From positions 1 through 56,053 of the forward strand of contig BDTJ01000035.1 in the NCBI GenBank assembly GCA_002897655.1: a DNA stretch of 56,053 nt. The letters run 5' to 3'. This DNA is from an archaeon BMS3Abin17. GTDB lineage: Archaea > Nanobdellota > Nanobdellia > Pacearchaeales > GW2011-AR1. The position numbers and the translations under genes are program-made. The first letter of the stretch is position 1. Every line of letters starts with the position of its first letter. The notes below the pieces were generated by a model. That model had not been told where the DNA came from and did no database searches. It saw nothing but the letters and a program-made list of their open reading frames with translations. Below are positions 2,239 through 47,204 of this stretch, piece by piece.

Positions 2239-3108
2239 CTAATCCTCTTCTGCTGTCCACCAGTCAAGGTCAGGAATATCTGCTTCTATTTTTTTTGCCT
2301 TGCAATATCCTTTTGCCAATAGATAAAATATAACCCCTAAACTTCTTGAGTTTTTGTTGTTTCCAATTATAATCTGGTCAGTTCCTTTTGAGAAATTATT
2401 TGTGTCACAAATCATCAAAACCTTTTTCCTTACATTCAGAGTATCATTAAGAGCGTTTCTGTCAAGCCAGGAGTCAGTTACAATTGTTAATTCATTCTCA
2501 AAAAAATCAGGAAGTTGGGTGTTTGTCAGGATTCCTGCAGGATATTTTTTAGTAAAGACTCTTATTCCTGTTAATCTTGAAAACATTTCTGCTGCTTTCC
2601 ATCCAACCTGCCTCTTACATACAAGGATTACGTCTTCTGGAGCAAATTTTGAAAGATATTCAATTCCTTCTTTTAATTTCTCATCAATTAAATCTGTATT
2701 AAAAATAGCTAATCCATCTGCTCTTCTTCTATAAACAAAAGCTCTCATATCAGGAGTTACAACCTTTGTCCCGAGATAAATTCCTGCTTTTACATATTCA
2801 TCAAGTGGAATAAGCATGTCTGCTCTTTTTTTAAGCTTAATCTGTTCTTTAAGTTCCTTTGTTGTAGGCCCTTCACTAGAAATCTTCTCCTTTAATTTTT
2901 TAGCCTTCTCTAGAAGCTCTTTTTTCTTTTTCTCAATATCTAATGGCTTTTCTGTTTTTAGAGATTCCTTTTCAGCGGCTTTCTCTAAGGCCACAGAATC
3001 TTGTTCATTTTCTGATTCTGTGCTGCCAAAATTCTCTTTGGAATTTTTAGCATCTTTTCCTTTTAATTCTTCTTTTACTTCTTCAGCATCAGCTTTTTTC
3101 TTTGCCAT
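2239..3108 (-). CDS. rps2: 30S ribosomal protein uS2 with a long charged N-terminal extension
   Basis: YVKAGIYLGTK...DMRAFVYRRRADGL, AGILTN, DTNN, GNNK motifs. Confidence 0.95.
   Translation of the reverse strand: MAKKKADAEEVKEELKGKDAKNSKENFGSTESENEQDSVALEKAAEKESLKTEKPLDIEKKKKELLEKAKKLKEKISSEGPTTKELKEQIKLKKRADMLIPLDEYVKAGIYLGTKVVTPDMRAFVYRRRADGLAIFNTDLIDEKLKEGIEYLSKFAPEDVILVCKRQVGWKAAEMFSRLTGIRVFTKKYPAGILTNTQLPDFFENELTIVTDSWLDRNALNDTLNVRKKVLMICDTNNFSKGTDQIIIGNNKNSRSLGVIFYLLAKGYCKAKKIEADIPDLDWWTAEED
2989..3054 (-). repeat. Twin-hairpin palindromic element inserted in frame in rps2
   Basis: Minus strand CTAAAAATTC-caaaga-GAATTTTGG cag CACAGAATC-loop-GATTCTGTGG; encodes DAKNSKENFGSTESENEQDSVA. 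Confidence 0.75.
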
Positions 3109-3172
3109 AAAATTTTCTTTCCATTTCTTTAAATTTTGTGGTTCAGAAAATCGTTAGATTTTCTTTTGCCAT
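3109..3172 (-). repeat. Start-codon-duplicating hairpin leader element of rps2
   Basis: ATGGCAAA at 3172 and at 3108; uORF MAKENLTIF*; hairpins AGAAAATC/GATTTTCT and CCACAAAATTT/AAATTTTATGG, the latter covering the second ATG. Confidence 0.7.
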
Positions 3173-3278
3173 GAGAATTGTGAGAAAAATATGTTTTTAA
3201 AACTTGCGTAAGCTTTGCTTCGGAAGTTCCAGAAAATATAAAATTTTCTGAAGGTTTAGTCTGAGTTTTTTAGTGCAA

Positions 3279-3299
3279 CGCCCCCACTGAGCTTCGAAC
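3279..3299 (-). other. Orphan tRNA 3'-end fragment
   Basis: GTTCGAAG-CTCAG-TGGGGGC-G = T loop, 3' T stem, 3' acceptor strand, discriminator; no 5' half; abuts the eno stop codon. Confidence 0.6.
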
Positions 3300-4480
3300 T
3301 ACCTCAAACTCCTCTCGATTTCAATAAGCCTCTTTATCTTTGCCTCACGCTCTTTGCCTGTTATCCCACATTTAAAGAAATCTGCTCCAAAACCAAAGGC
3401 TAAATCAGCAAGGATTGTCTCTTCTGTTACCTCGCTTCTATGGGAAAAAACTATCTTTATATTGTTTTTTTTTGCTAATTCACAGACTCTTTTAACCTCA
3501 AGAAGAGAACCGCACTGGTTTGGTTTTACAATAATTGCATTTACACTCTTCATATCAATTGCTTTTTGAAGTCTTTTATGATTTGTTACAATTAAATCAT
3601 CTCCAACAATAAGTGAATTAGGATATTTTTTTAATAATTTAGAGTGTGATTCAAAATCCTCCTCACTAAAAGGGTCTTCAATATAAAAAAGATTAAAATT
3701 CTTAATCAAATTGCTTAAATAACCTAATTGCTCTTCACTATCTCTGTCCAGCTTGGGATTTTGATAATGATATTTTTTTCTCTTGTAAAATCCTGAAGAT
3801 GCTACATCTGTTCCTAAAGGGATTTTTACTCTCTTAAGTGTATCAAAAATTTCTTTTTCATTTAAAGTGGTCATCCATGCATCTTCATCATTCTTCTTAT
3901 TCTTGAAATTTTTATCTACTTCTTCAAGAAAATTTCCAACTTGTTTTTTTGTTTTTTTGTTTAATTCAAAGGCTTCTTTTACAGACTTTGAATTTGGAAT
4001 TAGTAAAAACTCTTGAAAATCAGGTTTTTTAAGAGCATCAGAGTGTTTTCCCCCTCCAATGCAGTTTCCAACTAATCTTGGAAATTTAGGCTTCTTTGAT
4101 TTAGCAAAGAAGTCATGAGAGGGATTAATCAATTGCCAGACCTGTTTTTTCTGTTCTTTTGCTATTGCTTTTAAAACAGCTGCTTCTAAAGCAAAGAGAG
4201 TATTTGCTCCTATTTGTCTATCCATTATATCTTCAATTCTTCTTAAATCATTAAAATCTTCTATTGATTCTTTAGAAAAATAACTGCTAAAATCTTTTAT
4301 TGCTTTAATATCCCCTTCTAAACTTTTTTTATAGATTTTTACAGCATATTTTCCTGTCGACTGTCCTTTTGGTGCACTTGCAGAAAACTTACCAACATTT
4401 GTCTTAATAGTAACTTGTATTGTCTTTTCTTTTCCAGAATCTAGAATCCATTTTGCCGAAACCTCTTTTATAACAACCAT
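3299..4480 (-). CDS. eno: Enolase (divergent)
   Basis: GGKH, FQEF, DVASS, IEDPF, VGDDL, KPNQ, SHRS motifs; lies next to rps2 as in many archaea. Confidence 0.92.
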   Translation of the reverse strand: MVVIKEVSAKWILDSGKEKTIQVTIKTNVGKFSASAPKGQSTGKYAVKIYKKSLEGDIKAIKDFSSYFSKESIEDFNDLRRIEDIMDRQIGANTLFALEAAVLKAIAKEQKKQVWQLINPSHDFFAKSKKPKFPRLVGNCIGGGKHSDALKKPDFQEFLLIPNSKSVKEAFELNKKTKKQVGNFLEEVDKNFKNKKNDEDAWMTTLNEKEIFDTLKRVKIPLGTDVASSGFYKRKKYHYQNPKLDRDSEEQLGYLSNLIKNFNLFYIEDPFSEEDFESHSKLLKKYPNSLIVGDDLIVTNHKRLQKAIDMKSVNAIIVKPNQCGSLLEVKRVCELAKKNNIKIVFSHRSEVTEETILADLAFGFGADFFKCGITGKEREAKIKRLIEIERSLR

Positions 4481-4521
4481 TAAACAGAAAAATGAAATCT
4501 GGTTTATATAGATTTGGTTAA

Positions 4522-5208
4522 CTATATATAATCATCAACATCAATATCTCCCCCAGAATCTTTTCCTAAGCTTTCTTTTGCCGCATTAACTATAACTTCT
4601 GCAACTTTTTTTGGAGGAATTCCCTGAAAGCCAGTCATTGGAGTTGCTGTTAAGCTTGGATTCACATTATAGAACCTTATTTTATTATTGCAATACTCTT
4701 TTGCCATTGCTTTAGTAAATCCTCTAACTCCAAATTTTGTTGCGCAATATGGGGCAACTTCATCTTCTCCAACTTTTCCATATACACTTGCTATATTAAT
4801 TATTACTCCTTCTTTTTGTTTTTCCATTTGAAGCAAAATATTTTTTGTCATATTGATTAGCCCCTTTAAATTAACATTTATTTGGTCTTCAATTTCTTTT
4901 TCAGTTTGCTCCACTAAATTTTTTATCACAACAATCCCTGCATTATTAATCAAAACATCAATAGAACCAAACTTGTCAATTATTTTCTCAACAGCTTTGC
5001 TTACAGAACTGCTATCAGCAACATTTAATTTAACCAGCATACATTCTGTTATTTTTGCACATTCTTGCAGTGTTTTTTCAGCATCTTTTTTATTAGTATT
5101 ATAAGTTATAATTATTTTTGAACCTTGCTTTGTAAATTCTTTAACTGCCTCTTTCCCTATGCCTCTACTGCTGCCTGTAATTAAAACTACTTTGTTTTTA
5201 AGCTCCAT
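4522..5208 (-). CDS. Short-chain dehydrogenase/reductase
   Basis: TGSSRGIG, NNAG, YCATK motifs. Confidence 0.93.
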   Translation of the reverse strand: MELKNKVVLITGSSRGIGKEAVKEFTKQGSKIIITYNTNKKDAEKTLQECAKITECMLVKLNVADSSSVSKAVEKIIDKFGSIDVLINNAGIVVIKNLVEQTEKEIEDQINVNLKGLINMTKNILLQMEKQKEGVIINIASVYGKVGEDEVAPYCATKFGVRGFTKAMAKEYCNNKIRFYNVNPSLTATPMTGFQGIPPKKVAEVIVNAAKESLGKDSGGDIDVDDYI

Positions 5209-6351: not shown

Positions 6352-7148
6352 TTTATTTGATGTTCTATTTTTTTAATTAAATCTCTTTCTACTTTTTCTA
6401 CCAAGTCTAAAATATTTTTAAACTCTTCTATACTCAATTCTTTTAATCCGCTTTTTTGCATAGAGGAAATTACCCCTTCTGAGCTTCCAATTGTTACTCT
6501 TGTTTCGCTGACATCTTCTTCCTCTCTTGTAGGGTCAACAATCAGATTGTTTCCAATCTTATGAATACTTACTGCCACAGGAGTTTCTTTTGAGACAGGA
6601 ATTTTTCTCTCTGTCCATTCACCATACAATACTTTTTCTCCTTTTTCATCATATTTTGGCATCTTTGCAGTTTTTAGTGCAGCTATTGCCCCAATTCCTG
6701 CAGCATCAAGCAAATTACCGTCGTCATTTAATGAATAAATATCTATGAACACTGTCCATACTTTTTCTCCTTTTTTTATGCATAACTTATCCAAATCAAT
6801 AAATTTGCTTTCTCTTATTCCTCTGTCAATTACTCTGCCTAATTCAATTGCAGGGAATTTTGGAGGCCCATTTTCAAATCTTGGAGAACTTAATGGAAGT
6901 AACTCTGCTGTTACCATCATGTTTCCTTTGTCAGGTGAATCAGGATATGGCTCTCCAACACCCATTTTAACTCCAACTATAACTTCTGTCTTCCCAATCT
7001 TTACTTTTGCACTTCCTTCTGCATTTTTTGAAACACCTGTTTCAATACTTATATCTCTGAATTCATCAAGCTTTCTTCCATCAAATCTTTTTCCATCTGA
7101 TAAATACTGCCTGATTCTCTCACCAGTTAAATTTGATGTTTCTATCAT
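6348..7148 (-). CDS. rrp42: Exosome core subunit Rrp42
   Basis: RFDGRKLDEFR, AEGSAKVKIGKT, PYPDSP, DDGNLLDA. Confidence 0.96.
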   Translation of the reverse strand: MIETSNLTGERIRQYLSDGKRFDGRKLDEFRDISIETGVSKNAEGSAKVKIGKTEVIVGVKMGVGEPYPDSPDKGNMMVTAELLPLSSPRFENGPPKFPAIELGRVIDRGIRESKFIDLDKLCIKKGEKVWTVFIDIYSLNDDGNLLDAAGIGAIAALKTAKMPKYDEKGEKVLYGEWTERKIPVSKETPVAVSIHKIGNNLIVDPTREEEDVSETRVTIGSSEGVISSMQKSGLKELSIEEFKNILDLVEKVERDLIKKIEHQIK

Positions 7149-7849
7149 TCTTTACCTCCGACTTCTTTTAGTGCTTTCTTTTGGACTTCATAGATTTTCT
7201 TAGTTGCTTTTCCTGCAAGCTCAACAGCTTCATTTAATTGCTTTGTCCCAATCTTGCCATCTAATTGAATATGCGTGATTTTTCCTTCATGAGTCATTGT
7301 AATTGGAATATCTGTAGCCCCTTCTCCTTCTTCCCAATCTTCTTCTTTTTTTGTCAAGTCAGTAACTAATTGTTTGTCTAACTTGCCTATTGAAACACTT
7401 GACACCAAATCCTTCATAGGTATTCCTGCGTGTGCAAGAGCCATTATAGCAGCATTTATTCCAGCACATCTTGTTGATGCATCTGCTTGTAAGATATGTA
7501 TATGAACATCAATCACCCTGTTTGGATAATTGTCAATCATAACAACAGGCTCTAAAGCCCACTCAGTTATCTTGCTAATCTCAGTGCTTCTTCTGCTTGG
7601 ACCAGGTCTTATTCTGTCTGTAACTGAAAAACTAAGCATGTTGTAATTGCATCTCAGAGTTCCCTTTGCAGAATTTCTCTGGTTTCGGGGATGATGTTCT
7701 TTTGGACCATAAACAGCAGCTATTGCAACAGTATTTCCAAAAGAAAACATTGCACTTCCATCAGCATTAGGTATAACTCCGACTTTCGCACTTATAGGTC
7801 TTAATTCATCTGGTTTTCTTCCATCTGGCCTTTTAAATGTTTTTGTCAT
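7145..7849 (-). CDS. rrp41: Exosome core subunit Rrp41
   Basis: RPDGRKPDELRPI, ADGSA, VYGPKE, PSRRSTEIS, QADASTR. Confidence 0.96.
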   Translation of the reverse strand: MTKTFKRPDGRKPDELRPISAKVGVIPNADGSAMFSFGNTVAIAAVYGPKEHHPRNQRNSAKGTLRCNYNMLSFSVTDRIRPGPSRRSTEISKITEWALEPVVMIDNYPNRVIDVHIHILQADASTRCAGINAAIMALAHAGIPMKDLVSSVSIGKLDKQLVTDLTKKEEDWEEGEGATDIPITMTHEGKITHIQLDGKIGTKQLNEAVELAGKATKKIYEVQKKALKEVGGKE

Positions 7850-8142
7850 TTTTTATTTTCCTCTAAATATTTTAAGTAAGTCCAATAATTTTTTCCACCC
7901 CTTAATGTAAACTTAACTCCTGCACTTTCACCCAAATCAGTCATAGCAGGACCAACTAATTTAATTCCACCGATAACATTAGCAATATCCTCTCCTTTAT
8001 TCTTTCCTATTTTTATACATGTATCACTTCCATTCAATAGATGTCCGCTTTTTCCTAATGATTCTGTGCATCCATCCTTACTATTAAGAATGCTTTTTAG
8101 GTTTCTTATATTCCCCTTTATCTCATAAATTAAATTTACCAT
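7846..8142 (-). CDS. Hypothetical protein inserted between rrp4 and rrp41
   Basis: Likely start ATG 8142, just after the rrp4 stop; ATGA overlap with rrp41. Confidence 0.6.
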   Translation of the reverse strand: MVNLIYEIKGNIRNLKSILNSKDGCTESLGKSGHLLNGSDTCIKIGKNKGEDIANVIGGIKLVGPAMTDLGESAGVKFTLRGGKNYWTYLKYLEENKK

Positions 8143-8143
8143 T

Positions 8144-8818
8144 TTATTTCTTCTCCTTTTCAAACCATTTTTTTACTTCTTCTGTTAAACCCGAGATAAA
8201 AGATTTTTCTGTGACAAACAAAATAGCTTTTTTTGCATATAATTCATCTTCTACTTTATTTCCTTTTATCCATATTAGCCCGTTCTGGCCAACTGTTATA
8301 TTACATCCTGTTTCGTCTTTTATTAATTTTATCATGCTTCCTTCTTTTCCAATTACTCTTGGAACTTTGTTAGGATTAATCTGGACAATAATCCCTTCAT
8401 CTATTCTTCCTAATCCTCTTGATTTTATGCTTAAGTCAATCCCTCTTCTATTAACATTCCATATTTTTGCAACAGCCATGTCTCCAATATCCATTACCTC
8501 TTCTAATCCGTCTTTGTTAACATATCTTGGAACCTCCATTAATGATAAAAAAGCATTATCAGATGTTCCGATGTTTAGTATCCATCCGTTAAATGTCATG
8601 TTCTCAACCTTTCCTATGACAACATTTCCTCTTCTTGGCTGATAAACCCCTGATAAAGGAATTACCTTGATTAGCTTTCTTGACTCTTCTGCTAAGCCAT
8701 ATTTCATTGCAACTATCTCATCTCCTTTTTTCTCTGTTCCTTCTCCTGGCAAGTAATCATTTCCTTTCATTATTACTTCGCCAGGAATTACTATTTTTCT
8801 TTCTGCTTTTTCTGTCAT
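8144..8818 (-). CDS. rrp4: Exosome cap subunit Rrp4 (S1+KH)
   Basis: VIPGE, VIPLSGVYQP, KVPRVIGKEGSM, VGQNGLIW. Confidence 0.96.
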   Translation of the reverse strand: MTEKAERKIVIPGEVIMKGNDYLPGEGTEKKGDEIVAMKYGLAEESRKLIKVIPLSGVYQPRRGNVVIGKVENMTFNGWILNIGTSDNAFLSLMEVPRYVNKDGLEEVMDIGDMAVAKIWNVNRRGIDLSIKSRGLGRIDEGIIVQINPNKVPRVIGKEGSMIKLIKDETGCNITVGQNGLIWIKGNKVEDELYAKKAILFVTEKSFISGLTEEVKKWFEKEKK

Positions 8819-8820
8819 TT

Positions 8821-9498
8821 TTATTCTCCCTTAACTTCTTCTGTAACAGCACCTCCGTGTGTTACTGAGTTTAATTTATCATAAAAATCCATGATTAATC
8901 CTGCAGGGACATTCACAATAACATCCAGGTCTCCATTATCAAGCCATTTTTCACTTTCTTTATATTGGTTTATTATTCCATAAACCTTTCCGGTGTGCAT
9001 TGCAGGGACAATTATCTTTACTTTTTTTGTTTCCACTTTAATTGGAATTGTCTTGCTTATTTCAGAAATAATATCTGTAATCTGATTTTCTACTGGAACA
9101 TTTTTTATATTAACATGTGCCTGCTCTAATGCTCTCTTTATCCTTTCTGAAGTATGAGGGTTTCCTGTCTGAGGGTCAATAGCATTGCTCACTAAGAAAT
9201 CAACAACCTGCTTGAATTTTTTCTCTTTTTCCTCGTCCCTGTGTTCTTGCGTTAAAAGAATTTCACCATTTTTTACTATTTTTTCAGCAATAGCATTAAC
9301 ATCTTCTGTTCCGAATGCTTTTTTTAAATCAGAACCAGGAGCTGTTTCTCCTTTTTTCGAATCACTAAAGATCTTATCAATTTGTAAAAAATCTGAAACA
9401 ATCCCTTCTCCTTTTTTGAATTTTAATGCATTATCCAAATCAACCATGATTTCAAAATTAATTCCTGCCTGCTTTATTCTTGCTGTTGTTTGCGTCAT
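8821..9498 (-). CDS. Ribosome maturation factor SBDS/Sdo1
   Basis: FEIMVD, IFSDSKKG, IDPQTGNPHT..RI..AL; superoperon position. Confidence 0.95.
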   Translation of the reverse strand: MTQTTARIKQAGINFEIMVDLDNALKFKKGEGIVSDFLQIDKIFSDSKKGETAPGSDLKKAFGTEDVNAIAEKIVKNGEILLTQEHRDEEKEKKFKQVVDFLVSNAIDPQTGNPHTSERIKRALEQAHVNIKNVPVENQITDIISEISKTIPIKVETKKVKIIVPAMHTGKVYGIINQYKESEKWLDNGDLDVIVNVPAGLIMDFYDKLNSVTHGGAVTEEVKGE

Positions 9499-9499
9499 C

Positions 9500-10219: not shown

Positions 10220-10295
10220 TGTCTATATTATTAGAGAATTTTATAATAAACTTAACTTTTTCTTTTCTCTGTTAAATTTCAGAAGCCCTAACCAT

Positions 10296-20148: not shown

Positions 20149-20149
20149 G

Positions 20150-26759: not shown

Positions 26760-26820
26760 ATGGAAACAAAAAAATCAAAGATTTTTAGCCTCCAATTTAA
26801 GGAAGTGAATTAAATTGGAG
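26760..26820 (+). repeat. Hairpin leader element with uORF at the aCPSF1 start
   Basis: uORF METKKSKIFSLQFKEVN* (26760-26813); CTCCAATTTA pairs with TAAATTGGAG, placing AGGAAGTGA in the loop and TTG in the stem. Confidence 0.7.
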
Positions 26821-28698
26821 ATATTAAAGAATATAAAAGAACAACTGCATGGAAAGGTTACTGAAGCGAGCTTTGAAGGTGCAAACATAGTTCTTTACAC
26901 AGATAATGAGAAATTCTTCAAAGAAGGAGAAGGAAAGATAAAAGAAATAGTTGACCAGATAAAAAAGAGAATTGAGCTTAGAGCAGACCAAAAGATTCTT
27001 CTTGAGCAGAAAAAAGTAGAAGAAGAAATAAAGAATATTGTTCCTACAGAAGCAGATATTACAAACATAATTTTTGATTTTCACAGAAGCATTGTAATAA
27101 TTGAGGCAAAAAAACCAGGATTAGTAATAGGAAAACAAGGCTCTATACTTGAAGATATTAAAGAAGCAACTTTGTGGACTCCTCATGTCCAGAGAAGTCC
27201 TGCAATAAAAAGTCAGATTACAGAGAATATCAGAGAAGTTCTTTATGCAAATAATAATTACAGAAGAAAATTTTTAAACTCAATTGGAAAGAAAATTTAT
27301 ACTGATTGGAATCCAGAGAAAATGAAAGGATGGATTAGGCTCACATTTTTAGGAGGAGCAAGACAAGTTGGAAGAAGCTGTATGTTGTTGCAAACACCCA
27401 ATTCAAAGATTCTTCTTGATTGTGGTGTAGATGTTGCTGCACATGGTGCTGGTAAATTTCCTACGTTTGATGTTCCTGAATTTGATATAGCTCAATTAGA
27501 TGCTGTAATCATAAGTCATGCTCACCTAGATCATGTTGGCTTGGTTCCTTATTTGTATAAAATGGGTTATAAAGGTCCTATTTACATGACAACACCCACA
27601 AGAGATATTGCAGCACTAATCTCTCTTGATTTTATAGGAGTTGCCTACAAGCAGGCAGCAAAGCCATTGTTTGATTCTTCAGATATAAAGGAAATGGTAA
27701 AGCACAGCATTTGCCTTAATTACAACGAGGTTACTGACATTACTTCAGATGTGAGATTGACTTTTTACAATGCAGGACATGCATTAGGAAGTGCAATGAT
27801 TCATCTTAATATTGGAAATGGGGCACATAATCTTTTGTATACAGGAGATTTCAAGTATGGAAAGTCAAGGCTATTAGACCCTGCAATATCAACCTTCCCA
27901 AGAGTTGAATCAGTTATTACAGAATCAACTTATGGCTCAAAAAATGATATTCTTCCTCCACGTCTTCAGTCAGAAGAACAGCTTTTAGAATTAGTAAATA
28001 AAACAATTGCAAGAGGAGGCAAGGTTCTGATTCCGGAATTAGGTCTGGGAAGAGCACAAGAAACAATGCTTATTCTTGAAGATGCAATGAAGGCTGGTAA
28101 AATGAAAAAAATACCAATATATATAGATGGTATGATTTGGGATATTAATGCAATTCATACAGCTTATCCTGATTTTTTAAGTAATAAAGTTAGAGCACAG
28201 ATTTTTCAGGACAGCAATCCGTTTATTTCAGAGGTGTTTTCAAGAGTTGGCTCCCCTCATGAAAGGAGAAATGTTATTGAAGGAGGCCCTTGTGTTGTCC
28301 TTGCTACATCAGGTATGCTTGTAGGAGGTGCATCAGTAGAGTATCTTAGAGAATTTGCAGGCAATAAAGATAATGCATTAATATTTGTCTGTTATCAGGG
28401 TGTTGGCTCTCTTGGAAGGCAGGTTCAGGATGGAATCAAAGAAACAAGAATGGTTGTAGATGGTAAGGAAGAAATAGTAAAGATAAATATGGAGATTCAC
28501 ACAATAACTGGGCTTACTGCACACGCAGGAAGAAACGAGATTATGTCTTTTTTTAACAACATGAGGCCAAAACCAAAAAAAATAATAATTAACCATGGAG
28601 AGGTTTCAAAATCTCTTGATTTAGCCTCGTCATTATACAAACTCAACAGAGTAGAGACAAATGTCCCCAGAGATTTAGAAACACTGAGATTGAGGTGA
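26815..28698 (+). CDS. fttA: aCPSF1/FttA beta-CASP ribonuclease with KH domains
   Basis: FEGANIV, KKPGLVIGK, GGARQVGRS, HAHLDH, AGHALGS; follows psmB. Confidence 0.96.
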   Translation: MEILKNIKEQLHGKVTEASFEGANIVLYTDNEKFFKEGEGKIKEIVDQIKKRIELRADQKILLEQKKVEEEIKNIVPTEADITNIIFDFHRSIVIIEAKKPGLVIGKQGSILEDIKEATLWTPHVQRSPAIKSQITENIREVLYANNNYRRKFLNSIGKKIYTDWNPEKMKGWIRLTFLGGARQVGRSCMLLQTPNSKILLDCGVDVAAHGAGKFPTFDVPEFDIAQLDAVIISHAHLDHVGLVPYLYKMGYKGPIYMTTPTRDIAALISLDFIGVAYKQAAKPLFDSSDIKEMVKHSICLNYNEVTDITSDVRLTFYNAGHALGSAMIHLNIGNGAHNLLYTGDFKYGKSRLLDPAISTFPRVESVITESTYGSKNDILPPRLQSEEQLLELVNKTIARGGKVLIPELGLGRAQETMLILEDAMKAGKMKKIPIYIDGMIWDINAIHTAYPDFLSNKVRAQIFQDSNPFISEVFSRVGSPHERRNVIEGGPCVVLATSGMLVGGASVEYLREFAGNKDNALIFVCYQGVGSLGRQVQDGIKETRMVVDGKEEIVKINMEIHTITGLTAHAGRNEIMSFFNNMRPKPKKIIINHGEVSKSLDLASSLYKLNRVETNVPRDLETLRLR

Positions 28699-28712
28699 TT
28701 TTAAAAACCAGC

Positions 28713-28787
28713 AAAATCTTTGCCCCTGCGTCTGTGCGTAGGCACAGTTTAGATTTTGTGGCTTAAAAACCTCAAGGTTTTTAAGCA
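28713..28787. repeat. Intergenic twin-hairpin element
   Basis: CAAAATCT..CTGTGC-gtag-GCACAG..AGATTTTG then GCTTAAAAACC-tcaa-GGTTTTTAAGC. Confidence 0.65.
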
Positions 28788-28806
28788 TTTTTTCCCACCA
28801 CCTAAT

Positions 28807-29664: not shown

Positions 29665-29789
29665 ATGAAACACAATGAAAACAGGAAACACTAAAAAACC
29701 TTCGGTTTTTGGTGCTACGAAAATCTCTGATTTTCGTGGTTTTCAAGCATTTCATTTTTAAGGAAGGTGACAAAAAAATGAAGCACAAT
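29665..29789 (+). repeat. Start-duplicating twin-hairpin element before the presenilin-like gene
   Basis: ATGAAACACAAT (29665) vs ATGAAGCACAAT (29778); CACTAAAAA..TTTTTGGTG, CTACGAAAATC-tct-GATTTTCGTGG; TTCATTTTT/AAAAATGAA stem around the SD GGAAGGTGA. Confidence 0.8.
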
Positions 29790-37370: not shown

Positions 37371-37420
37371 TTTTAATTACCTCCAAACATATTTTTTCAA
37401 ATGGTGTTATACTTATAAAA

Positions 37421-38020: not shown

Positions 38021-38098
38021 AATAAATAAAATGCAAAAAACTATTTAATAATTTATATTTTCTTTTTAGTGATAATTTCTTTTTACAAAAAATTAAAA

Positions 38099-38515: not shown

Positions 38516-38548
38516 GTTGTTTTTACTAAGTTTTTTTAGTTTTTAAAC

Positions 38549-39190: not shown

Positions 39191-39263
39191 ATTATAGTTT
39201 TATTAAAATGCTTTATTAAGCTTTTCTGTATTTTATCACTTATTTCATTATAAAGCCATATTC

Positions 39264-41972
39264 TTATCTTGGCATTCCCAGAGGTCCTCTTGGCCTGAAT
39301 CTCTGGTTTGGTGCAGGGGGGATTCTTCCAGTTGGTTGAGGAATCTGTTTTTTCCTCCTCAGCATTCCAAAGATTTTTCCTGGAGATATTTCAAACATAC
39401 CTGTTCTTTTTCCTGCATATTTCTTCATGATATATGTTACTTGTTCAGAATTCCAGCCAGATTTTCTCAAAGATGATTTTAGGGCATCGTCACCCAGACC
39501 TTTTTTCTTTGCATTATTAATATAGGTTATTAAGTTATATATGTTGTTTCTGTTTTTGAATAAATAATTCTCGTATTTTATCTTATACCATCTTTGAAGT
39601 ATTACATACATGATAAATGCAAGGATAAATAAGAAAATCATGATTAATCCAAATATATACCACTTTTTTTTGCTTGGAACAAATTCTCCTGGGTCTTTAT
39701 ATCCTGTTATGTCTAATCTATCAAGACTGGGAGAAATAAATGCAGGCAAGCTGGCAAAGTCAATATCCTCTGTTGTTGAAAATGTGATGGTGTATGCCTC
39801 TTTTTTTAATCTTATATATTCATATCCGGATTTCTCACTCTCTAAATAATTTGCATCAAAATCCAGGTTTTCAAGTTTGCGTATAATAAGATAGGAATCA
39901 TAACCCACCCCCTCTTTTTCACTTGTCTTTAATTCAAATATTCTTAGAAGAGGTTTCCCAGAACCCCCATATTGCACTGAAAACTCCTTGAACTTTACCC
40001 TTGTTTCCATATTTTCCATGTTCCAGAAGAGTATTGCATTAATGTAAGATTCTCTCTTATCGGATTCATAACTTCCTCCGCCTATTTCTTTTAAGACATC
40101 TAGATTTATGTTTTTTTCATCAGGGTAGAATAAGAGGGAGGCTGTATTTCCACTTTCGCTAATTGATTCAGGAATTTTTAATGCTAACAACCTTGGCATT
40201 ATTAGATTATAATCTTCTTCTGAATCAGCTTTTTTAAAATCTTTTTGCAGTGCTGTTATTTCACTATCAAGTGAATCAATATCTAATCTTGAATTTAAGC
40301 CTTTTTGCTCAAATTCATCAAGACTTTCTATCTGCTCCTTTACCTTGGCCAAATCCCCCTGCATTTCTTCAAGGCTTGTGTTTATTACTTTTTCAGGAGT
40401 CTCAATAGTTATGTCAAATGTCATGTAAGAAGTTCTCTGGCTGGAATCTGTTATTGTTATCTTCATCTTATATTGCCCTGTAGAATCATAAGTATGGATT
40501 ATTTTGTTTGTTGAACTTGTCCCTGTTTGATTATCTCCAAAATCCCATTCATATTTTGAAATATTGCCTGATGCTGAGACTTGAACCTCAAACTCAGTTG
40601 GATATGCAGAAGCAGTTTTTGTAGGTGTTAATGATTTTATTACAGGAACACTCTCAACAAAAACCTTTTTTGAAAAAATCTCTTTATCATTTAATTCTAA
40701 TCTGAAGGTGTAATTTCCTAAGTTTGATAAGACAGAAAAATTACCCTTGTTTAAGGATATCTTATTAAAATCCATTGTTATTGTTGCAGGAATCTCAGAG
40801 ATGTCATATATTTCATCCTCTATTATCCCTGAAAATGATGGAGTGCTGTATTTTATAGATAAATCCTTTATTGTTATGCTTTGGTCCTCTCTAGGGATTA
40901 TCTTTACTGGGACAATACAGTCATTTAAAGAGCAGTCACTATTTCCATATTTTTCAATTATATAATCTTTCATTTTATTAGAAATAGTCTCTCCATAGTC
41001 CAGGGAGTTATTTATCAATAAAGTTCCAACCCCTCCAAAACTTTTTCCTTCTGCAAAAATCTGATAAGCTGCAGTTGTTTTTTTATCATAACTGGGATTT
41101 CCATTAAATCCACAAGCTTCAGAAGAATTAGATGTCTCATACCCCTTTATTTTATTCTCACCCCCCCCTCCATCAGAATTAATGCAGACATAATAATTTT
41201 TTTGTTCTTTTACTAGATAATTTATATTGCATGATATTTCCCCCCCGCTACTTGTAGCTTTAGGCAATTCACAACTTCCCAAATCTGCATCATAAAGGTC
41301 ATAGAGTGTCATTGTTAATATTTCTGAACCATTGCCTGTTTCTTTAACCCATGCCCCTATTTTAAATCCAGGAGATTCAAGGAGATTTATTCTCTGGCAA
41401 TAAGGAGGGGTGACTCCAATAACTCCTTCAACAGTTTGCTTAGAATCATCAAAACAACCATAACTTTTTACACAACTTTCTCCTGAAGATTTATAATTTC
41501 CTGTGTCTATCTCCCCGTCATTTAATATATCTATCTTCAATTGATTGCTGCAGGAAGAAACAGCATCACTGTCAATTGTAAAGTCTATAGAGTCTATGCT
41601 ATCTATGTTCTCACTAAATTTAAATCCTATAAGGAAGGGGTTCATTGCCTCTAAATCAAAATTCTTTGCTGTACCTCCATTACTTACAGAATAATCTGGA
41701 CTGCAGTCTTTTGTATTGCATGAATACGAAATATCATTAGTTTTATCAAGCAACTCAATAAGAGTTATAGAATCGCCTTTAGAGTCTTCAAAAAGAGAGT
41801 TTGTGGGTTCGCCTGCCAGACTTATGTTTATCCATCCTTTTATATTATCAGAGGCTCCGTATTGAGTATCAATTGAATAAGATAGATTTCCAATCTCAAA
41901 ATCTGCACTTGTAAATCCAACTAATAATGTTCCCAGTATAATAAAGATAAGTAATTTACTAATCAACCTCAT
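39264..41972 (-). CDS. Large membrane-anchored surface protein with a PKD domain
   Basis: Signal peptide, YEWDFGD..HTY..G.Y, C-terminal TM and cytoplasmic tail. Confidence 0.85.
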   Translation of the reverse strand: MRLISKLLIFIILGTLLVGFTSADFEIGNLSYSIDTQYGASDNIKGWINISLAGEPTNSLFEDSKGDSITLIELLDKTNDISYSCNTKDCSPDYSVSNGGTAKNFDLEAMNPFLIGFKFSENIDSIDSIDFTIDSDAVSSCSNQLKIDILNDGEIDTGNYKSSGESCVKSYGCFDDSKQTVEGVIGVTPPYCQRINLLESPGFKIGAWVKETGNGSEILTMTLYDLYDADLGSCELPKATSSGGEISCNINYLVKEQKNYYVCINSDGGGGENKIKGYETSNSSEACGFNGNPSYDKKTTAAYQIFAEGKSFGGVGTLLINNSLDYGETISNKMKDYIIEKYGNSDCSLNDCIVPVKIIPREDQSITIKDLSIKYSTPSFSGIIEDEIYDISEIPATITMDFNKISLNKGNFSVLSNLGNYTFRLELNDKEIFSKKVFVESVPVIKSLTPTKTASAYPTEFEVQVSASGNISKYEWDFGDNQTGTSSTNKIIHTYDSTGQYKMKITITDSSQRTSYMTFDITIETPEKVINTSLEEMQGDLAKVKEQIESLDEFEQKGLNSRLDIDSLDSEITALQKDFKKADSEEDYNLIMPRLLALKIPESISESGNTASLLFYPDEKNINLDVLKEIGGGSYESDKRESYINAILFWNMENMETRVKFKEFSVQYGGSGKPLLRIFELKTSEKEGVGYDSYLIIRKLENLDFDANYLESEKSGYEYIRLKKEAYTITFSTTEDIDFASLPAFISPSLDRLDITGYKDPGEFVPSKKKWYIFGLIMIFLFILAFIMYVILQRWYKIKYENYLFKNRNNIYNLITYINNAKKKGLGDDALKSSLRKSGWNSEQVTYIMKKYAGKRTGMFEISPGKIFGMLRRKKQIPQPTGRIPPAPNQRFRPRGPLGMPR

Positions 41973-42020
41973 TTTACTATCTCAAGAATAACAGATTTAT
42001 AAATATTCCTCAATATAAAA

Positions 42021-43424
42021 TTAATGTCTTCTCTTTTTTTGATTCATTGCAATATATAATAATACTATTACAATCACTGTTATTATAAAATTAGTATAAC
42101 CAAAAAAAGGAAGCTCTATTTGTGCAGGGCAGATTACCTGGTTACTTCCACCCTCACATGTTGCTTCTTTTCCATCAGGGTCATAATGCCAGTATCCATC
42201 ACCACCTAAAACCCAAAGAGGCCCAGAAACAGGGGTTGTATTAATATTGATTGGGTTCCATAAATAACTTGCAATCCATGAGTACATATAAAACCCATCT
42301 GCACAATCATCTGTGGTATTCTCATTATAACTGCAGCTTCCTATTTTTGAAGGAGTCCCCCCTTCATCACTGCAAACCTCATCTATTACATCTACTCTGT
42401 TTCCCATGCACTCTTCATCTTCCCATATACACTCGCAATTACTCCATATATCACACCCATCTGCACCAGTAGTTACCTGTCCGCAGACAAATCCTCCTCC
42501 CTCATTTGCTTCCACAGTACTGCCTGCAACATTACAGGTATTGACATCATTTTCACATTCTGATTCATTCTTATAATCAGAGCATCTGCCAATTCCAGAG
42601 CAATAAGTTTCGCTAAGCGTTGTTACATTAAGAATATTCTCACTATTTTTTCCATTAACCTTAAAGAAAAATTCATAAGTATCATCTAATTCAGTCCCCC
42701 CTGAATCTATATCTTCTGATGTTATTTTCCATGTGACACTTGAACTTAAATTAGCATCAATAACTCCTGTTATTGCATCTGCACCTGTTCTTATATCATC
42801 ATTTCCGAATAATCCATCATCCTCGTAAATACTAAAATCAACATCTGTTCCTTGACTAAGTCCTGAGTTTTTCAAGATTAATAAAACCTCTGTTGTTCCG
42901 GGAATAGCCTCTATAGATGTTGTTATTCTATTTCGGTTCAGGTCTGCAAAATAAGCTCTTTGAAAGGTTGATTGTTTACAGCATATTTTTTCAGGATAAA
43001 CACTAAAATTTCCCAGATGGGCATTGGTGCTGGAAGATAATGAAATCATTTCAATAGGATATTCTCCAGGGCAAGAATCAGTTGAGCTTGTACAGTTCAG
43101 ACTTTCATAACAAACATTGGAATTATAATTAGTGTTTTCAGGAGTTTCTGCATGAGCATTTGTATCTGAGGAAAGCCCAACAACCTTATTGTATCCATCA
43201 CATGTTGTGTCTCCTACGCCAAAATCACAGCATAGAGAATAACTATAGAAGGATTCACTCTCTAATTCACCATGAGCATTTGCAGTATCAGATAAGTGCA
43301 TAATATCATATTCAAGAGCATCACAACTAGTTTTGACACTGCATGTATCAGCAGATATAAATCCAATGGATGCAATTATTAGAAATAAAAATCCTAAAAA
43401 AATACCTGCTCTTTTTAACCCCAT
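42021..43424 (-). CDS. Cys-rich secreted/surface protein with three LSxxxNAH repeats
   Basis: Signal peptide; HLSDTANAH, GLSSDTNAH, SLSSSTNAH; LPFFG + TM + basic tail. Confidence 0.8.
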   Translation of the reverse strand: MGLKRAGIFLGFLFLIIASIGFISADTCSVKTSCDALEYDIMHLSDTANAHGELESESFYSYSLCCDFGVGDTTCDGYNKVVGLSSDTNAHAETPENTNYNSNVCYESLNCTSSTDSCPGEYPIEMISLSSSTNAHLGNFSVYPEKICCKQSTFQRAYFADLNRNRITTSIEAIPGTTEVLLILKNSGLSQGTDVDFSIYEDDGLFGNDDIRTGADAITGVIDANLSSSVTWKITSEDIDSGGTELDDTYEFFFKVNGKNSENILNVTTLSETYCSGIGRCSDYKNESECENDVNTCNVAGSTVEANEGGGFVCGQVTTGADGCDIWSNCECIWEDEECMGNRVDVIDEVCSDEGGTPSKIGSCSYNENTTDDCADGFYMYSWIASYLWNPININTTPVSGPLWVLGGDGYWHYDPDGKEATCEGGSNQVICPAQIELPFFGYTNFIITVIVIVLLYIAMNQKKRRH

Positions 43425-43521
43425 TTTATATTCTTACCAGTAAAATACAATTTATAAATCTTCTCAATTTCCCAAAAATATTCAAAAGGTTTTTAAATAA
43501 TCAATTCTTAATCTAATAAAG

Positions 43522-44199
43522 ATGGTGAGTATAAATATTAAATTCTCTAACAGGGTTTTATATACATTTATAGCTGTAGTTGTAGCAATATTATTTAGTG
43601 TGCTTGTTTATGCTGTGGCAGGAGTTAGTCATGACGCAACTGAAATTGATTTAAGTGCAGGGGTTTCTGGCGATGCAATATTTAATGGTAATGTTGGTAT
43701 TGGGACTTCAAGTCCCCAATCTTCTTTGGATGTTGCAGGCGATGCAATATTTAATGGCAACGTCGGTATTGGAACAACAAGTCCAACTCAAAAATTAGAT
43801 GTATCTGGTCAAATTCATGCTACTGGTAATATCTGCAGTGATACAAGCGGTGGAGCATGTTTGAGTGATATCATTTATCCGGATTGTCCACTATCATCTG
43901 TTGATACTGGTTATGGTTTTTGTTTGGATAAAAGTGATTTTTCAGCTGATACATGGTATAATGCAGAGGCCATATGTGCGTCACGGGCAAATGGAGAAAG
44001 ATTATGCACACTGACAGAATGGCATCTTGCCTGTGAGGCAGGAATAATCAGTCCAGCTCTTACGACATGGATTCATCAGTTTAATTCTAATGGCCAGGCT
44101 ACTACTGCAGGCTATTTTGCAACAGGTGATTGCAACACTGTGGGTCAGAATGATCCTACTTCAAGTCTGAATTTCAAGTGTTGCTCTGATATAAGATAG
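43522..44199 (+). CDS. Surface fibre/adhesin-like protein with GNVGIGT repeats and a CLec-like C-terminus
   Basis: Two GDAIFNGNVGIGT repeats; TWYNAEAIC...RLCTLTEW..AC...FKCC. Confidence 0.75.
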   Translation: MVSINIKFSNRVLYTFIAVVVAILFSVLVYAVAGVSHDATEIDLSAGVSGDAIFNGNVGIGTSSPQSSLDVAGDAIFNGNVGIGTTSPTQKLDVSGQIHATGNICSDTSGGACLSDIIYPDCPLSSVDTGYGFCLDKSDFSADTWYNAEAICASRANGERLCTLTEWHLACEAGIISPALTTWIHQFNSNGQATTAGYFATGDCNTVGQNDPTSSLNFKCCSDIR

Positions 44200-44231
44200 A
44201 GAGTTTAGAGTTAGAAAATTAATTCCGTAAT

Positions 44232-44334
44232 TACTTACTGGTTTGAAGCTAATTTTCATTTTATCGACGATAGAACAAAATTTGGTAAAATTGGAAGATA
44301 TTTTTTATCGTCGGGAACTTCAGAAAGCTAAGTA
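44232..44334. other. Long interrupted intergenic hairpin
   Basis: TACTTA/TAAGTA, TTGAAG/CTTCAG, CGACGATA/TATCGTCG nested stems. Confidence 0.5.
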
Positions 44335-44389
44335 GATACTTAATTTCCAAATATTTAAAAACTATAGTTTCTTAATGCCTCTAATAAAG

Positions 44390-45244
44390 ATGGTGAGTAT
44401 AAATATTAAATTCTCTAACAGGTTCTTATATACTTTCATAGCAGTGGTTGTAATTATGTTATTTGGCATGGGAGTTTATGCATATGGCGGAACTTATGGA
44501 AACTCTTCTATAATGGGGCACTCTGCAGACGAGATAGGAAATGGGACAATTGCAAACACCCTCACTGTATCTAATGGAAAAGTTGGTATTGGGACAACAA
44601 CTCCTGGCACTAATTTAGAGATATCCAGCACTGCTTCACCAGGAAACCTTTTGCGTTTAAGCAGGTCAAACCTTGCAAGAACAGCTGATATTGGAATTGA
44701 TGATTGGGGAAATTTATTATTGGATAATACAATAAAAATACAAAATGATGCTGTGGGTATTGGAATTAGTTGGTCTTCTCCTGGAGTGGGTAAGTTAGAG
44801 GTGGAAACTGATTCAAGTTATGGTGATTCTGTGGGGGTAAAGATTGACCATATAGGAACTTCCAGCGTTGGAACAACTTATGGCCTTACTTCTGAAGCAT
44901 CTGGCGCTTCTTTAAATAATGTAGCAGGATATTTTTCAGCTTCTGGAGGTACAAATAATTATGGTTTAATTGTGGAGAATGGAGATGTGGGTATCGGGAC
45001 GACGAGCCCACAGGCGAAGTTAGATGTTAATGGCAACATAAAACTTGCAATCTCAACAGAATCAATAGGATCTGTATATAAACAATACACCCCCAAAATA
45101 AAAGTTTATGATACTTGTGGCGACAATGAAGGCGAAATTAGAATAAAGATGGGCTTTAATGTTAATGCAGAACTTTGTTGGTGCGCAGGGGTAAATAGGC
45201 CAGATGGTCTGATACAAATCAGATGGAGCTGTCTGGACGAATAG
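44390..45244 (+). CDS. Paralogous surface fibre-like protein with VGIGTT repeats
   Basis: Start set by a 43-bp identity (43512-43554 = 44380-44422) with the upstream paralog. Confidence 0.75.
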   Translation: MVSINIKFSNRFLYTFIAVVVIMLFGMGVYAYGGTYGNSSIMGHSADEIGNGTIANTLTVSNGKVGIGTTTPGTNLEISSTASPGNLLRLSRSNLARTADIGIDDWGNLLLDNTIKIQNDAVGIGISWSSPGVGKLEVETDSSYGDSVGVKIDHIGTSSVGTTYGLTSEASGASLNNVAGYFSASGGTNNYGLIVENGDVGIGTTSPQAKLDVNGNIKLAISTESIGSVYKQYTPKIKVYDTCGDNEGEIRIKMGFNVNAELCWCAGVNRPDGLIQIRWSCLDE

Positions 45245-45321
45245 CAGAACTATTTGTTATTTACAAAGCCAAAATAACAACTGTTTTCTTTTCATCTTTA
45301 GCCTGCAAGAAAAATTAGTTT

Positions 45322-46731
45322 TTAACCTTTCATGACTGCTATTGGCTTTAATCTTGCTACTTTTTTTCCAATGCCAACTTCATCTACAACTTTAATGACT
45401 TCGTCAATATCTTTGTAAGCTTCAGGAGCTTCTTCTGAAAGTCCCCTCATGCTTCCTGACTCAACTTCAATTCCTTTTTTTGACAGGTCTTTTTTTACTT
45501 CTTCACCTGTTCTTTGTTTTTTTGCACTTGTTCTGCTTTCAACTCTTCCTGCACCATGGCAGGTTGAACTAAATGAAATCTCTTCTGCTTTTTTTGTTCC
45601 AACCAAAACATAAGAAGCAGTCCCCATGCTTCCAGGTATAATAACAGGCTGCCCAACTTTTCTGTAAGCTTTTGGAATTTCTTCTCTTCCTTCTCCAAAA
45701 CTTCTTGTTGCGCCTTTCCTCATAATTAAAACTTGTTTTTCTTTTCCATCAATAGTGTGTTTTTCAAATTTAGCAATATTATGGCAGACATCATAAACAA
45801 CTTCTGCTTTTAATTTTGGGAAATAATGTTTTAAATCTTCTCTAATCCAGTGAGTTATTAACTGCTTGTTTGCAAATGCAAAATTAGCTGCACAGGCCAT
45901 TGCACTAAAATATTCTTTACCTAATTTGCTGTTAATTGGAGCATTAACTAATTCTCTGTCCTGCTCTGGCCACTTATATTCCATTTCCATTAATCTTATG
46001 TAATCTGAAGCAACCTGATGCCCTAATCCTCTTGAACCACAGTGAATCATGATTGTAATCTGCCCTTTTTCTAATCCAAATTCTCTTGCAATTTTTTCAT
46101 CATAAATCTCATCAACAACCTGGATTTCTAAAAAATGATTTCCTGCACCCAAACTTCCTAACTGCGGCAGCCCCCTTTTCTTTGCTCTTTCACTAACATT
46201 ATCAGGGTTTGCACCATTTAATTTTCCTTCTTCTTCTGTATGCAAATAATCTTCTTTAACTCCATAACCTTTTTTAACAGCCCACTGAGCCCCTTCTTTC
46301 AAAACTCCGTTTAATTCTTGCTTATTTAATATTAGTTTGTCTCCTCTTCCCACACCAGAAGGAATACTTCTGAATAAAGAATGAATTATTTCTTTTTTAT
46401 TTTTAATATCCTTAAGTGTTAAATTTGTTCTAAGCAATCGCACACTGCAGTTAATGTCATAACCAACTCCTCCAGGACTTATAACACCTTTTTCAATATC
46501 AAAAGCAGCAACCCCTCCTATTGGAAAGCCATATCCTTGATGAGCATCTGGCATCACCATGCTTGCTTTTAATATTCCAGGCATCATTGCAACATTCTTT
46601 ATCTGTTGCAAGGCTTTGTCTCCCTTAATATTTTTAATCATGTTTTCACTAACAAAAATCTTTGCAGGAACATTCATCTTTCCGCTCTTTGGCATTTCAT
46701 ATATATTATCTGATATTTTTTTAATTTCCAT
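45322..46731 (-). CDS. rtcB: tRNA-splicing ligase RtcB
   Basis: MPDAHQGYGFPIGG, GYDINC, GNHFLE, HCGSRG, HN, HGAGR, EEAPEAYK. Confidence 0.97.
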   Translation of the reverse strand: MEIKKISDNIYEMPKSGKMNVPAKIFVSENMIKNIKGDKALQQIKNVAMMPGILKASMVMPDAHQGYGFPIGGVAAFDIEKGVISPGGVGYDINCSVRLLRTNLTLKDIKNKKEIIHSLFRSIPSGVGRGDKLILNKQELNGVLKEGAQWAVKKGYGVKEDYLHTEEEGKLNGANPDNVSERAKKRGLPQLGSLGAGNHFLEIQVVDEIYDEKIAREFGLEKGQITIMIHCGSRGLGHQVASDYIRLMEMEYKWPEQDRELVNAPINSKLGKEYFSAMACAANFAFANKQLITHWIREDLKHYFPKLKAEVVYDVCHNIAKFEKHTIDGKEKQVLIMRKGATRSFGEGREEIPKAYRKVGQPVIIPGSMGTASYVLVGTKKAEEISFSSTCHGAGRVESRTSAKKQRTGEEVKKDLSKKGIEVESGSMRGLSEEAPEAYKDIDEVIKVVDEVGIGKKVARLKPIAVMKG

Positions 46732-46733
46732 TC

Positions 46734-47204
46734 TCAAACATCTAACACAACCTGGGTTGTGTATTTATTCTTTTCCCCAACAAAATCATTTGCTTTTTTT
46801 GATTTTGTGGCACCAAAATTTGCAGGCAAATTTTTAGTGTTTTTTACAAACATCTCATTGTAAGTTATTGCCTTGACATCATTTGAAAATTTATAATTAG
46901 ACGCTTTATCACCAACAACAATTGCTTTTAGCTTGAACTTGCTGATTTTTATGCTTTTTATCTTACTCGTGATAAAATCCTCTGCATCAAGAAGATACAG
47001 GAACTCTTCCAGGAAATTATACAATAGGTTTTCAAAATCCCTTCCGCTTATTTCAATCTTTTTTTCTTTTTTTGCCTTAATTTTTGCGTTGCACATTCTT
47101 TCTTTCAGGGCAAGTGCAGAATTCTCAAAAGCTTCTTCAATAGTTTTCCCAGATGCCTGAAACTTTACATCTGCAGTATGAGGTAAAAAAATGTATTTTT
47201 TCAT
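46734..47204 (-). CDS. Archease (carries an in-frame 22-aa insertion)
   Basis: HTADV, VKAITYNEM, VVLDV; adjacent to rtcB. Confidence 0.93.
   Translation of the reverse strand: MKKYIFLPHTADVKFQASGKTIEEAFENSALALKERMCNAKIKAKKEKKIEISGRDFENLLYNFLEEFLYLLDAEDFITSKIKSIKISKFKLKAIVVGDKASNYKFSNDVKAITYNEMFVKNTKNLPANFGATKSKKANDFVGEKNKYTTQVVLDV
46776..46841 (-). repeat. Twin-hairpin palindromic element in frame in archease
   Basis: Minus strand AACACTAAAAATTTGC-ct-GCAAATTTTGGTGC CACAAAATC-loop-GATTTTGTTGG; encodes NTKNLPANFGATKSKKANDFVG. Confidence 0.8.

Follow-up and report, generated by a model that had tools for sequence, protein, structure and literature searches.

Palindromic repeats that are written into proteins are known in Rickettsia, Wolbachia, Coxiella and Methanocaldococcus jannaschii (PMC2229807, PMC10969869, each source as far as its accessible portions go). 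In the same portions, Rickettsia palindromic elements (RPE) are described as short dispersed palindromes that lie between genes, in RNA genes and operons, and in frame within housekeeping genes, with one conserved peptide frame per family, insertions where the protein fold tolerates them, and no linked transposase. Here we analyze a repeat that shares these traits, consisting of two adjacent hairpins, in the genome of the archaeon BMS3Abin17 (assembly GCA_002897655.1). The stretch under study, referred to as the window, is the whole contig BDTJ01000035.1 (C35 in our numbering; 56,053 nucleotides), and the genome comprises 1,091,667 bases in 44 contigs (~32% G+C, completeness 92%, contamination 1.2%). 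Placing the host among the DPANN archaea agrees with the labels carried by the nearest homologs and by the metagenome-assembled genomes that bear the pattern.

An original prediction, made from the letters of the window, had likened the repeat to RPE and to the coding palindromes of M. jannaschii, and the likening is apt by what the accessible parts of both sources describe (PMC2229807, PMC10969869). There are also differences from RPE as these parts portray them. RPE are 105-146 bp long versus 58-102 nt here, and they form one long stem with terminal inverted repeats, whereas the present repeat has two adjacent independent hairpins with an optional inner hairpin or closing stem. The host here is an archaeon, and no sequence relationship is known. 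M. jannaschii, in turn, is a methanogen whereas our host belongs to the DPANN archaea, and its palindromes are likened to ours by description alone (PMC2229807, accessible part). By analogy, the repeat is a presumably non-homologous counterpart of RPE and not a new principle. The explanation we prefer, at a probability of about 0.7, is a selfish or amplifying palindromic element of the RPE kind whose coding copies are tolerated as peptide loops. Searches of an open-access library turned up no account of a repeat of this type in DPANN, Woesearchaeota or Pacearchaeota.

Simple patterns, together with a profile run in nhmmer, gave the first further copies on other contigs. An alignment of nine copies, long and mid-length, was made (A3), the two stems were marked by hand, and a covariance model, R1, was built from this alignment, the uS2 copy being among the nine. 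A sequence-only hidden Markov model (HMM), here called the leave-out HMM, was built from seven other copies and included neither the uS2 nor the archease copy. Scanning the genome with R1 gave 31 matches at E<=1 and 23 at E<0.01, nine of the latter being the training copies. The copies are diverged (median identity 60%, best pair 91%) and occur in short (58 nt), mid-length (70 nt), and long (87-102 nt) forms; the uS2 and archease copies belong to the mid-length form, and the long form carries a GC-rich inner hairpin inside the second loop. The first hairpin is A/U-rich on the sense strand.

Across the nine aligned copies, 93.9% of stem cells were paired, compared with 87.2% after column shuffling and 34-52% when the partners were slid. 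Of 20 stem pairs, eight changed on both sides, against a shuffle mean of 2.7, and none of 500 shuffles attained this number. In stem 1, a U-G pair is conserved in 8/9 copies. The stem covariation that had been claimed from three copies is thus borne out, and a search with a covariance model, proposed at the same time as a check, returned many further copies together with significant covariation. R1 scores for the two strands of a copy differ widely (for example, 78.1 versus 18.3 bits, and 40.7 versus 19.6 bits), and because each copy scores far higher on one strand, the fold belongs to that strand. The repeat is therefore a family of dispersed short repeats with a strand-specific conserved fold. 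Rfam 15 gave no match at the gathering score across the window, and none overlapping the elements at E<=10 in 28650-29850.

Within the window, copies had been predicted in rps2 (uS2), in archease, and in a gene leader. All three are present, each as two adjacent hairpins, and the three peptides quoted for them read exactly as given. With the filters of R1 off, the window holds five strong copies and two weak candidates (Table 1); the prediction had missed the two long-form copies and both weak candidates. Both the uS2 copy (66.6 bits with R1, which was trained on it) and the archease copy were recovered by the leave-out HMM, with E values of 1e-3 and 2.1e-6, respectively; those of the leader copy and the divergent long-form copy were 6.5e-5 and 2.9e-6. 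Because its E value is the highest, the uS2 copy is the weakest, or most diverged, of the predicted three.

Table 1. Copies of the twin-hairpin repeat in the window, with candidate copies and adjoining genes.
Feature	Position	Strand	Description
Twin-hairpin copy, mid-length form	2986..3055	-	In the K/E-rich N-terminal extension of the uS2 gene; peptide DAKNSKENFGSTESENEQDSVA
uS2 host gene	2239..3108	-	289 aa; ~95-aa low-complexity N-terminal extension
Weak, degenerate candidate copy, not established	3101..3166	-	Spans the uS2 start codon; R1 20.3 bits, E=0.07; HMM E=0.035
Weak candidate twin hairpin, not established	26764..26825	+	Just before the FttA gene start; R1 21.6 bits, E=0.04
FttA/aCPSF1 gene	26815-28698	+	Transcription termination factor
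Long-form intergenic copy	28704..28790	-	Inner GC-rich hairpin; 5 nt past the FttA/aCPSF1 stop, antisense to that gene
Short 'leader' variant	29675..29745	+	Hairpins 1 and 2 at 29686-29743, plus possible closing stem
Archease host gene	46734..47222	-	162 aa; Pfam PF01951 on homologs; adjoins upstream ORF 45322-46737
Twin-hairpin copy, mid-length form	46773..46842	-	In archease; ~21 aa added (NTKNLPANFGATKSKKANDFVG)
Divergent long-form copy	54307..54408	+	Overlaps the 5' end of called ORF 53795-54358 (-)

The uS2 and archease copies align over 66 nt, as predicted, with 43/66 identities and no gap. For 66-mers of the window the background is a mean of 18.6 identities (sd 3.8), and unrelated 66-mers reached at most 36, so that the observed identity lies 6 sd above background. 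Predicted folding energies for the uS2, archease, and leader copies are -19.2, -17.2, and -20.4 kcal/mol (z-scores -3.3, -2.5, and -5.2), with 2, 2, and 0 of 200 shuffles, respectively, folding as well. It is conceivable that an A/T-rich genome with a low-complexity uS2 tail could offer such similarity by chance. The recovery of both intragenic copies by the leave-out HMM, their identity to one another, the covariation, and the dozens of further copies refute this idea, and we regard it as having next to no chance of being correct.

Gene context was taken from a crude map of open reading frames (ORFs), with hosts named by Pfam. On this map nine copies of the genome lie wholly within long ORFs, all of them in the sense orientation. 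Two are in an FmrO-like rRNA methyltransferase, and the others are in uS2, archease, a TRM5/TYW2 methyltransferase, GatD, chorismate mutase, a GT4 glycosyltransferase, and a histidine phosphatase. Each would add 20-30 residues to its host protein. All nine are read, free of stops, in the peptide register N-T-K-N .. F-G-A-T-K-S .. D-F-V-G, while 8/14 non-coding copies have a stop in the corresponding register. The first stem of the element creates a stop codon; two sense and two antisense frames avoid that stop, and just one of these frames is used. In other organisms, with duplicates removed, Pfam identifies six hosts, and in all of them the element is read in this same frame: leucyl-tRNA synthetase (LeuRS), an arginase-family protein, class I lysyl-tRNA synthetase (LysRS), PriS-PriL primase, a metallopeptidase-like protein, and another archease. 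A small number of long ORFs read the element in other frames in those organisms, and these were discounted as read-through of upstream regions or as spurious. The other archease, encoded by ORF 3-569 (-) of metagenome contig L192, has the element at its N-terminus, ahead of the archease domain, and archease has therefore been hit at two or more positions in different organisms.

The core (N/S)-F-G-(A/S)-T-(K/E)-S and the end D-F-V-G are found in all coding copies, here and elsewhere, as would be expected if the peptide were a short linear motif under selection to bind a partner shared by the hosts, the nucleotide palindromy being secondary. We think this very improbable. At least 14 copies, including those in rRNA spacers, are non-coding, and more than half of these, as noted above, have stops in the frame in question; moreover, compensatory changes in the stems alter the peptide (e.g., K-S becomes E-S with D-F becoming D-S), and the archease insert is modelled as disordered coil. 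In the account we prefer, the landing sites of copies would have included intergenic DNA, rRNA-operon spacers, and protein-coding genes; within genes, the survivors would be the sense copies in the single stop-free, hydrophilic frame (N-T-K-N..N-F-G-A-T-K-S..D-F-V-G), translated as a flexible surface loop or terminal tail of 20-30 residues that the host protein tolerates.

We then compared host proteins with those of relatives for archease, Trm5/TYW2, the FmrO-like gene (two sites), and uS2. Archease was found in 31/40 relatives, all of other genera, and the insert is absent in 19/19 of those aligned, a few of which have 2-8 extra residues at that position. It would add ~21 aa to the loop that separates the final two beta-strands. 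Nearly all of the best 120 of 1,825 archease homologs have lengths of 134-148 aa; the exceptions are the genome's own protein and a 159-aa protein elsewhere that has an element-like 'GATKSKT' segment in the same loop. The latter (P0020, from a contig of 1,057 bases) reads '..KSKISGATKSKTAP..' there and then continues into an aberrant C-terminus; its segment could have arisen there independently, by a second hit on this loop, or could be of common descent with ours. For Trm5/TYW2, in which the insert is ~28 aa, matches skip query residues ~182-209 in 40/40 relatives, and a clean 28-residue gap is seen in 12/12 aligned relatives. The FmrO-like gene has a match in 19 relatives, every one of them outside both insert stretches, and both gaps of ~29 residues are present in 12/12 aligned relatives.

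In uS2 the element lies just upstream of the conserved 'LEKAAEKES' block, in the K/E-rich N-terminal tail. No clean empty site can be drawn there because the tail is hypervariable, those of 17 relatives being too variable to align. Thus, the proposed comparison of orthologs yielded an empty site for archease but not for uS2, and the idea that all close orthologs carry the segment as ancestral sequence does not hold for archease, Trm5/TYW2, or the FmrO-like gene, whose inserts are absent from aligned relatives. As judged from these protein alignments, the inserts at the four sites are lineage-specific insertions. An AlphaFold2 model of the archease (48 aligned sequences, mean pLDDT 83) placed the insert (~residues 129-153) in a disordered loop: it is modelled as coil, with pLDDT means of 51 and 45 for its 10-residue blocks, between the confident strands 118-128 and 154-161. 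In the assembled DNA contigs of four runs, surveyed over 28000-47900, none joins across the archease insert and no empty allele was seen, although one may still exist; contigs of two of the four runs cross the insert and show no difference there. One contig with a joint from 28744 to 46801 was considered as a deletion and rejected, since it represents another copy of the repeat that matches two copies.

The same coding copies could in principle leave the proteins unaltered, if they were cut from the RNA like introns by the archaeal splicing endonuclease and the ends were joined by RtcB with archease. The context invites this thought, in that one copy sits in archease itself, beside ORF 45322-46737, and others are near pre-rRNA processing stems. 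An excised segment, however, need not be in frame or free of stops, as all the coding copies are, nor would it need the same peptide frame in the six hosts of other organisms. In predicted folds the hairpins close locally and the ends are unpaired, with no bulge-helix-bulge across the junctions. The kept frame and the lack of this motif make splicing of the coding copies unlikely, and we consider removal from RNA highly improbable as an explanation.

At least 14 copies are non-coding. Three of them are in the rRNA operon (contig C3), all in transcript sense: the first lies in the 16S-23S spacer, directly against the 3' end of tRNA-Ala, a second lies further along this spacer, and the third is at the 3' end of 23S rRNA, within the processing stem. 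For 17 intergenic copies between co-directional genes, the crude ORF map gave ~11 sense and 6 antisense orientations. The presence of both orientations among non-coding copies fits random landing, followed by selection inside genes. Most intergenic copies have GG and then TTTT at the 3' end, compared with at most 2/9 coding copies, and five non-coding copies are <=50 nt downstream of a co-oriented stop codon. On the same contig, the match to 23S rRNA at 6911-10367 (-) (L128) spans 3,457 bases against a model of 2,987 positions, with ~470 extra bases inserted; R1 gives no twin-hairpin copy inside this 23S rRNA.

The leader copy belongs to the short form. It lies 33 nt before the ATG of a gene for a presenilin-type signal-peptide peptidase (29778-30665, 295 aa) and overlaps a 28-codon ORF upstream of that gene. 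The original prediction had read it in the same frame as the other two copies, and the peptide is as quoted, but the small ORF is not conserved: a conserved micro-protein was rejected on finding a stop in one sister copy and a different ATG frame in others. The short sub-family to which the leader copy belongs is distinct and more conserved, and it is probably not translated. Sixteen copies of the short variant were collected, four in this genome and 12 on other contigs. In 16/16, the 5' flank, [U/A/C]GAAAAY, can pair with the 3' flank, GGUUUUC[A/U/G] (in the leader copy, 5' TGAAAAC with 3' GGTTTTCA), and such pairing would enclose both hairpins and give a three-way junction. Among the copies, the outermost positions of this closing stem switch between U-A, A-U, and C-G pairs, and four copies show a swap of G-C to C-G. 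The stem is A/U-rich and weak in each copy, however, with shuffled flanks equalling it in 0-33% of trials. At eight loci the short variant ends 19-38 nt ahead of an ATG, and the genes downstream are unrelated (signal-peptide peptidase, PolD small subunit, SecDF, uL6, uS4, RuBisCO, a Toprim protein, and others), for which reason a gene-specific riboswitch or leader was rejected. The conserved short variant is a candidate for a new structured RNA motif.

These results bear on the question of whether the twin hairpin is primarily a functional RNA or DNA signal, the coding copies being by-products of its spread. Candidate roles would be a transcript end, terminator, or insulator, an RNA processing or stabilizing element, or the binding site of a lineage-specific protein; as a signal, the short form would be a three-way junction held by its closing stem. 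The uniform transcript sense in the rRNA operon, the GG-TTTT ends of intergenic copies, the five copies close behind stop codons, the closing stem with its pair switches that every short-variant sequence can form, and the placement of the short variant 19-38 nt ahead of an ATG at eight loci all speak for such a signal. Against it, the unrelated downstream genes argue that the element is not a gene-specific regulator, about a third of the copies between co-directional genes are antisense, the closing stem is individually weak, and the elements have no Rfam match even at the relaxed cutoff. Its distribution argues in the same direction, because 134/150 other genomes of the order have no R1 match at E<=1e-3, and the element is therefore dispensable. 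Overall, we consider a primary signal unlikely.

At this E value, matches were present in 6/40 relatives and in 16/150 other genomes of the order; under strict filters, this genome had 20 matches, versus a maximum of six in any of the 150. The exact core pattern was found in 13 records of a collection of genomes from 185,579 species, 12 of them labelled Nanoarchaeota, Woesearchaeota, Pacearchaeota, or Nanoarchaeia and one labelled Flavobacteriales, as well as in 25 metagenome contigs.

Is there an enzyme that might mobilize the repeat? The genome has nine matches to PF01797 (Y1 transposase), mostly from an IS200-like element broken at contig ends. This insertion sequence (IS) of ~0.7 kb encodes only a Y1 transposase and breaks the assembly at at least 10 contig ends, including 55891-56053 of the window; further ends are C44:1-405, C12:1-397, and those of C33, C29, C20, C10, C38, C42, and C23. 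These copies are ~84-86% identical to the full copy at C44:~19700-20404. At 1907-2251 (-) of contig C1 (2,519 bases) there is a second Y1 gene, with short GTCCC-N3-GGGAC hairpins on either side of it that are oppositely oriented. The arrangement looks like that of repetitive extragenic palindromes (REP) with a REP-associated tyrosine transposase (RAYT), and its hairpins are unrelated to the twin-hairpin repeat. Contig C1 may not belong to the genome, since it matches nothing else there. In one relative (L044, G040:C74), a copy of the repeat at 3123-3188 (+) is ~1 kb upstream of a Y1 gene at 4203-4562 (+), a single case that may be coincidence. TnpB (PF07282) had no match in the genome. There is one reverse-transcriptase gene (PF00078), at C23:22959-23634 (-), seen as two adjacent matches, one with an internal TAA, and we found no link between it and the repeat. 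Diversity-generating retroelements are common in DPANN archaea, and this gene may belong to one.

Palindrome-associated elements derived from IS200/IS605 (PATE) are hairpin-based, strand-specific, and without inverted terminal repeats or target duplications. The present repeat is likewise hairpin-based and strand-specific, and the genome also holds a multi-copy IS200-like element. Unlike the case of PATE, the end hairpins of the resident IS differ from the repeat, and relatives carry the repeat without a detectable Y1 transposase. An IS200/IS605 derivation was rejected on these grounds, as Y1 presence does not follow the repeat. A REP/RAYT system was rejected as well, given the unrelated hairpins around the Y1 gene of contig C1 and the lack of Y1 co-occurrence. 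With bacterial MITE, REP/BIME, ERIC, Correia/NEMIS, and SPRITE repeats, as described in the accessible portions of PMC10969869 and PMC2229807, our repeat shares small size, multiple copies, and a mostly intergenic location; transcripts of those repeats fold into stable stem-loops, and some copies are co-transcribed or fused in frame to ORFs. Unlike those repeats, as far as these portions characterize them, ours shows no target-site duplication visible at protein-level resolution, no parent IS with matching ends, and no RAYT/Y1 association. Inverted termini, which may be a further point of difference, amount at best to the 6-10 bp A/U-rich flank pairing of the short variant; long and coding copies show none.

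Several of these observations weigh against a selfish or amplifying element. The end hairpins of the IS200-like element differ in sequence from both hairpins of the repeat and thus offer no parent element. Y1 genes do not track the repeat, being present in 2/6 relatives with repeat matches and in 9/34 without, and relative G025 has seven repeat matches with no Y1 detected. The four empty sites, compared at the protein level, to within 1-2 codons, with relatives of other genera, give no sign of a target-site duplication. No two copies of the genome are identical, and so there is no pair to give evidence of movement. The short variant has ~79% identity per alignment column across its 16 copies, a figure inflated by sampling with the exact core pattern, and a second genus has the spacer copy that abuts tRNA-Ala in the identical place, its stems altered by compensatory changes, a sign of function that also favors a signal. 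That this copy persists in two genera and that the short variant is conserved suggest that the element is not purely selfish but has some function or is under constraint.

The original prediction had called the repeat a mobile or amplifying element. Its multi-copy nature stands; mobility itself is inferred, with no target-site duplication, parent element, or polymorphism of filled and empty sites to attest to it. Nevertheless, a palindromic element of the RPE kind remains the explanation we favor, and we infer a transposition-like spread in which selection would filter frame and orientation and inserts would be translated rather than removed. A selfish element and an RNA-level function of at least some copies are not mutually exclusive.

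The remaining observations concern the surroundings of individual copies. In the weak candidate at the uS2 start, the uS2 ATG falls in the 3' arm of hairpin 2. FttA/aCPSF1, upstream of the long intergenic copy, has KH, beta-lactamase, beta-CASP, and RMMBL domains. The gene preceding the leader copy, 29254-29610 (+), encodes a MazF/PemK-type toxin of a toxin-antitoxin pair. In the loop of hairpin 2 of the leader copy (29726-29728), one low-depth contig has AGA where the window has TCT, a difference that may be an error at a depth of ~4; AGA is the reverse complement of the loop, as expected for a flip of the hairpin loop, and AGA is likewise the loop sequence of a sister copy on C18. On metagenome contig L173, the gene at 1743-4757 (+), which follows a copy of the short variant, encodes a type II/IV secretion ATPase with a LAGLIDADG-endonuclease intein. 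The divergent long-form copy lies upstream of 54462-54965 (-) and is antisense to both minus-strand ORFs near it.

A broader proposal would make the twin hairpin, with the short form as a three-way junction, a functional RNA module of DPANN archaea, copies of which have spread to mRNA leaders, to pre-rRNA spacers, and into coding sequence. We hold this to be doubtful. If true, the module would serve either as the site recognized by an RNA-binding or processing factor specific to the lineage or as a general mark of transcript boundaries, and the loops in uS2, archease, aminoacyl-tRNA synthetases, and tRNA- or rRNA-modifying enzymes would mark a post-transcriptional regulon. As a bolder corollary, some of the lineage-specific insertions that universal proteins show in DPANN archaea would stem from such elements.

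The finding would add a second, independent archaeal family to the one reported archaeal case of palindromic repeats that write peptides. Its hosts are genome-reduced DPANN archaea, in which every gene is thought to be under pressure, and core genes of translation and RNA processing are affected (uS2, archease, GatD, and Trm5 here; LeuRS and LysRS in relatives), as is the rRNA operon. The repeat calls for caution in gene calling and in phylogenies that score such inserts as shared characters, it can serve as a marker for the tracing of strains and lineages, and it offers a tangible origin for differences in protein length among these lineages.

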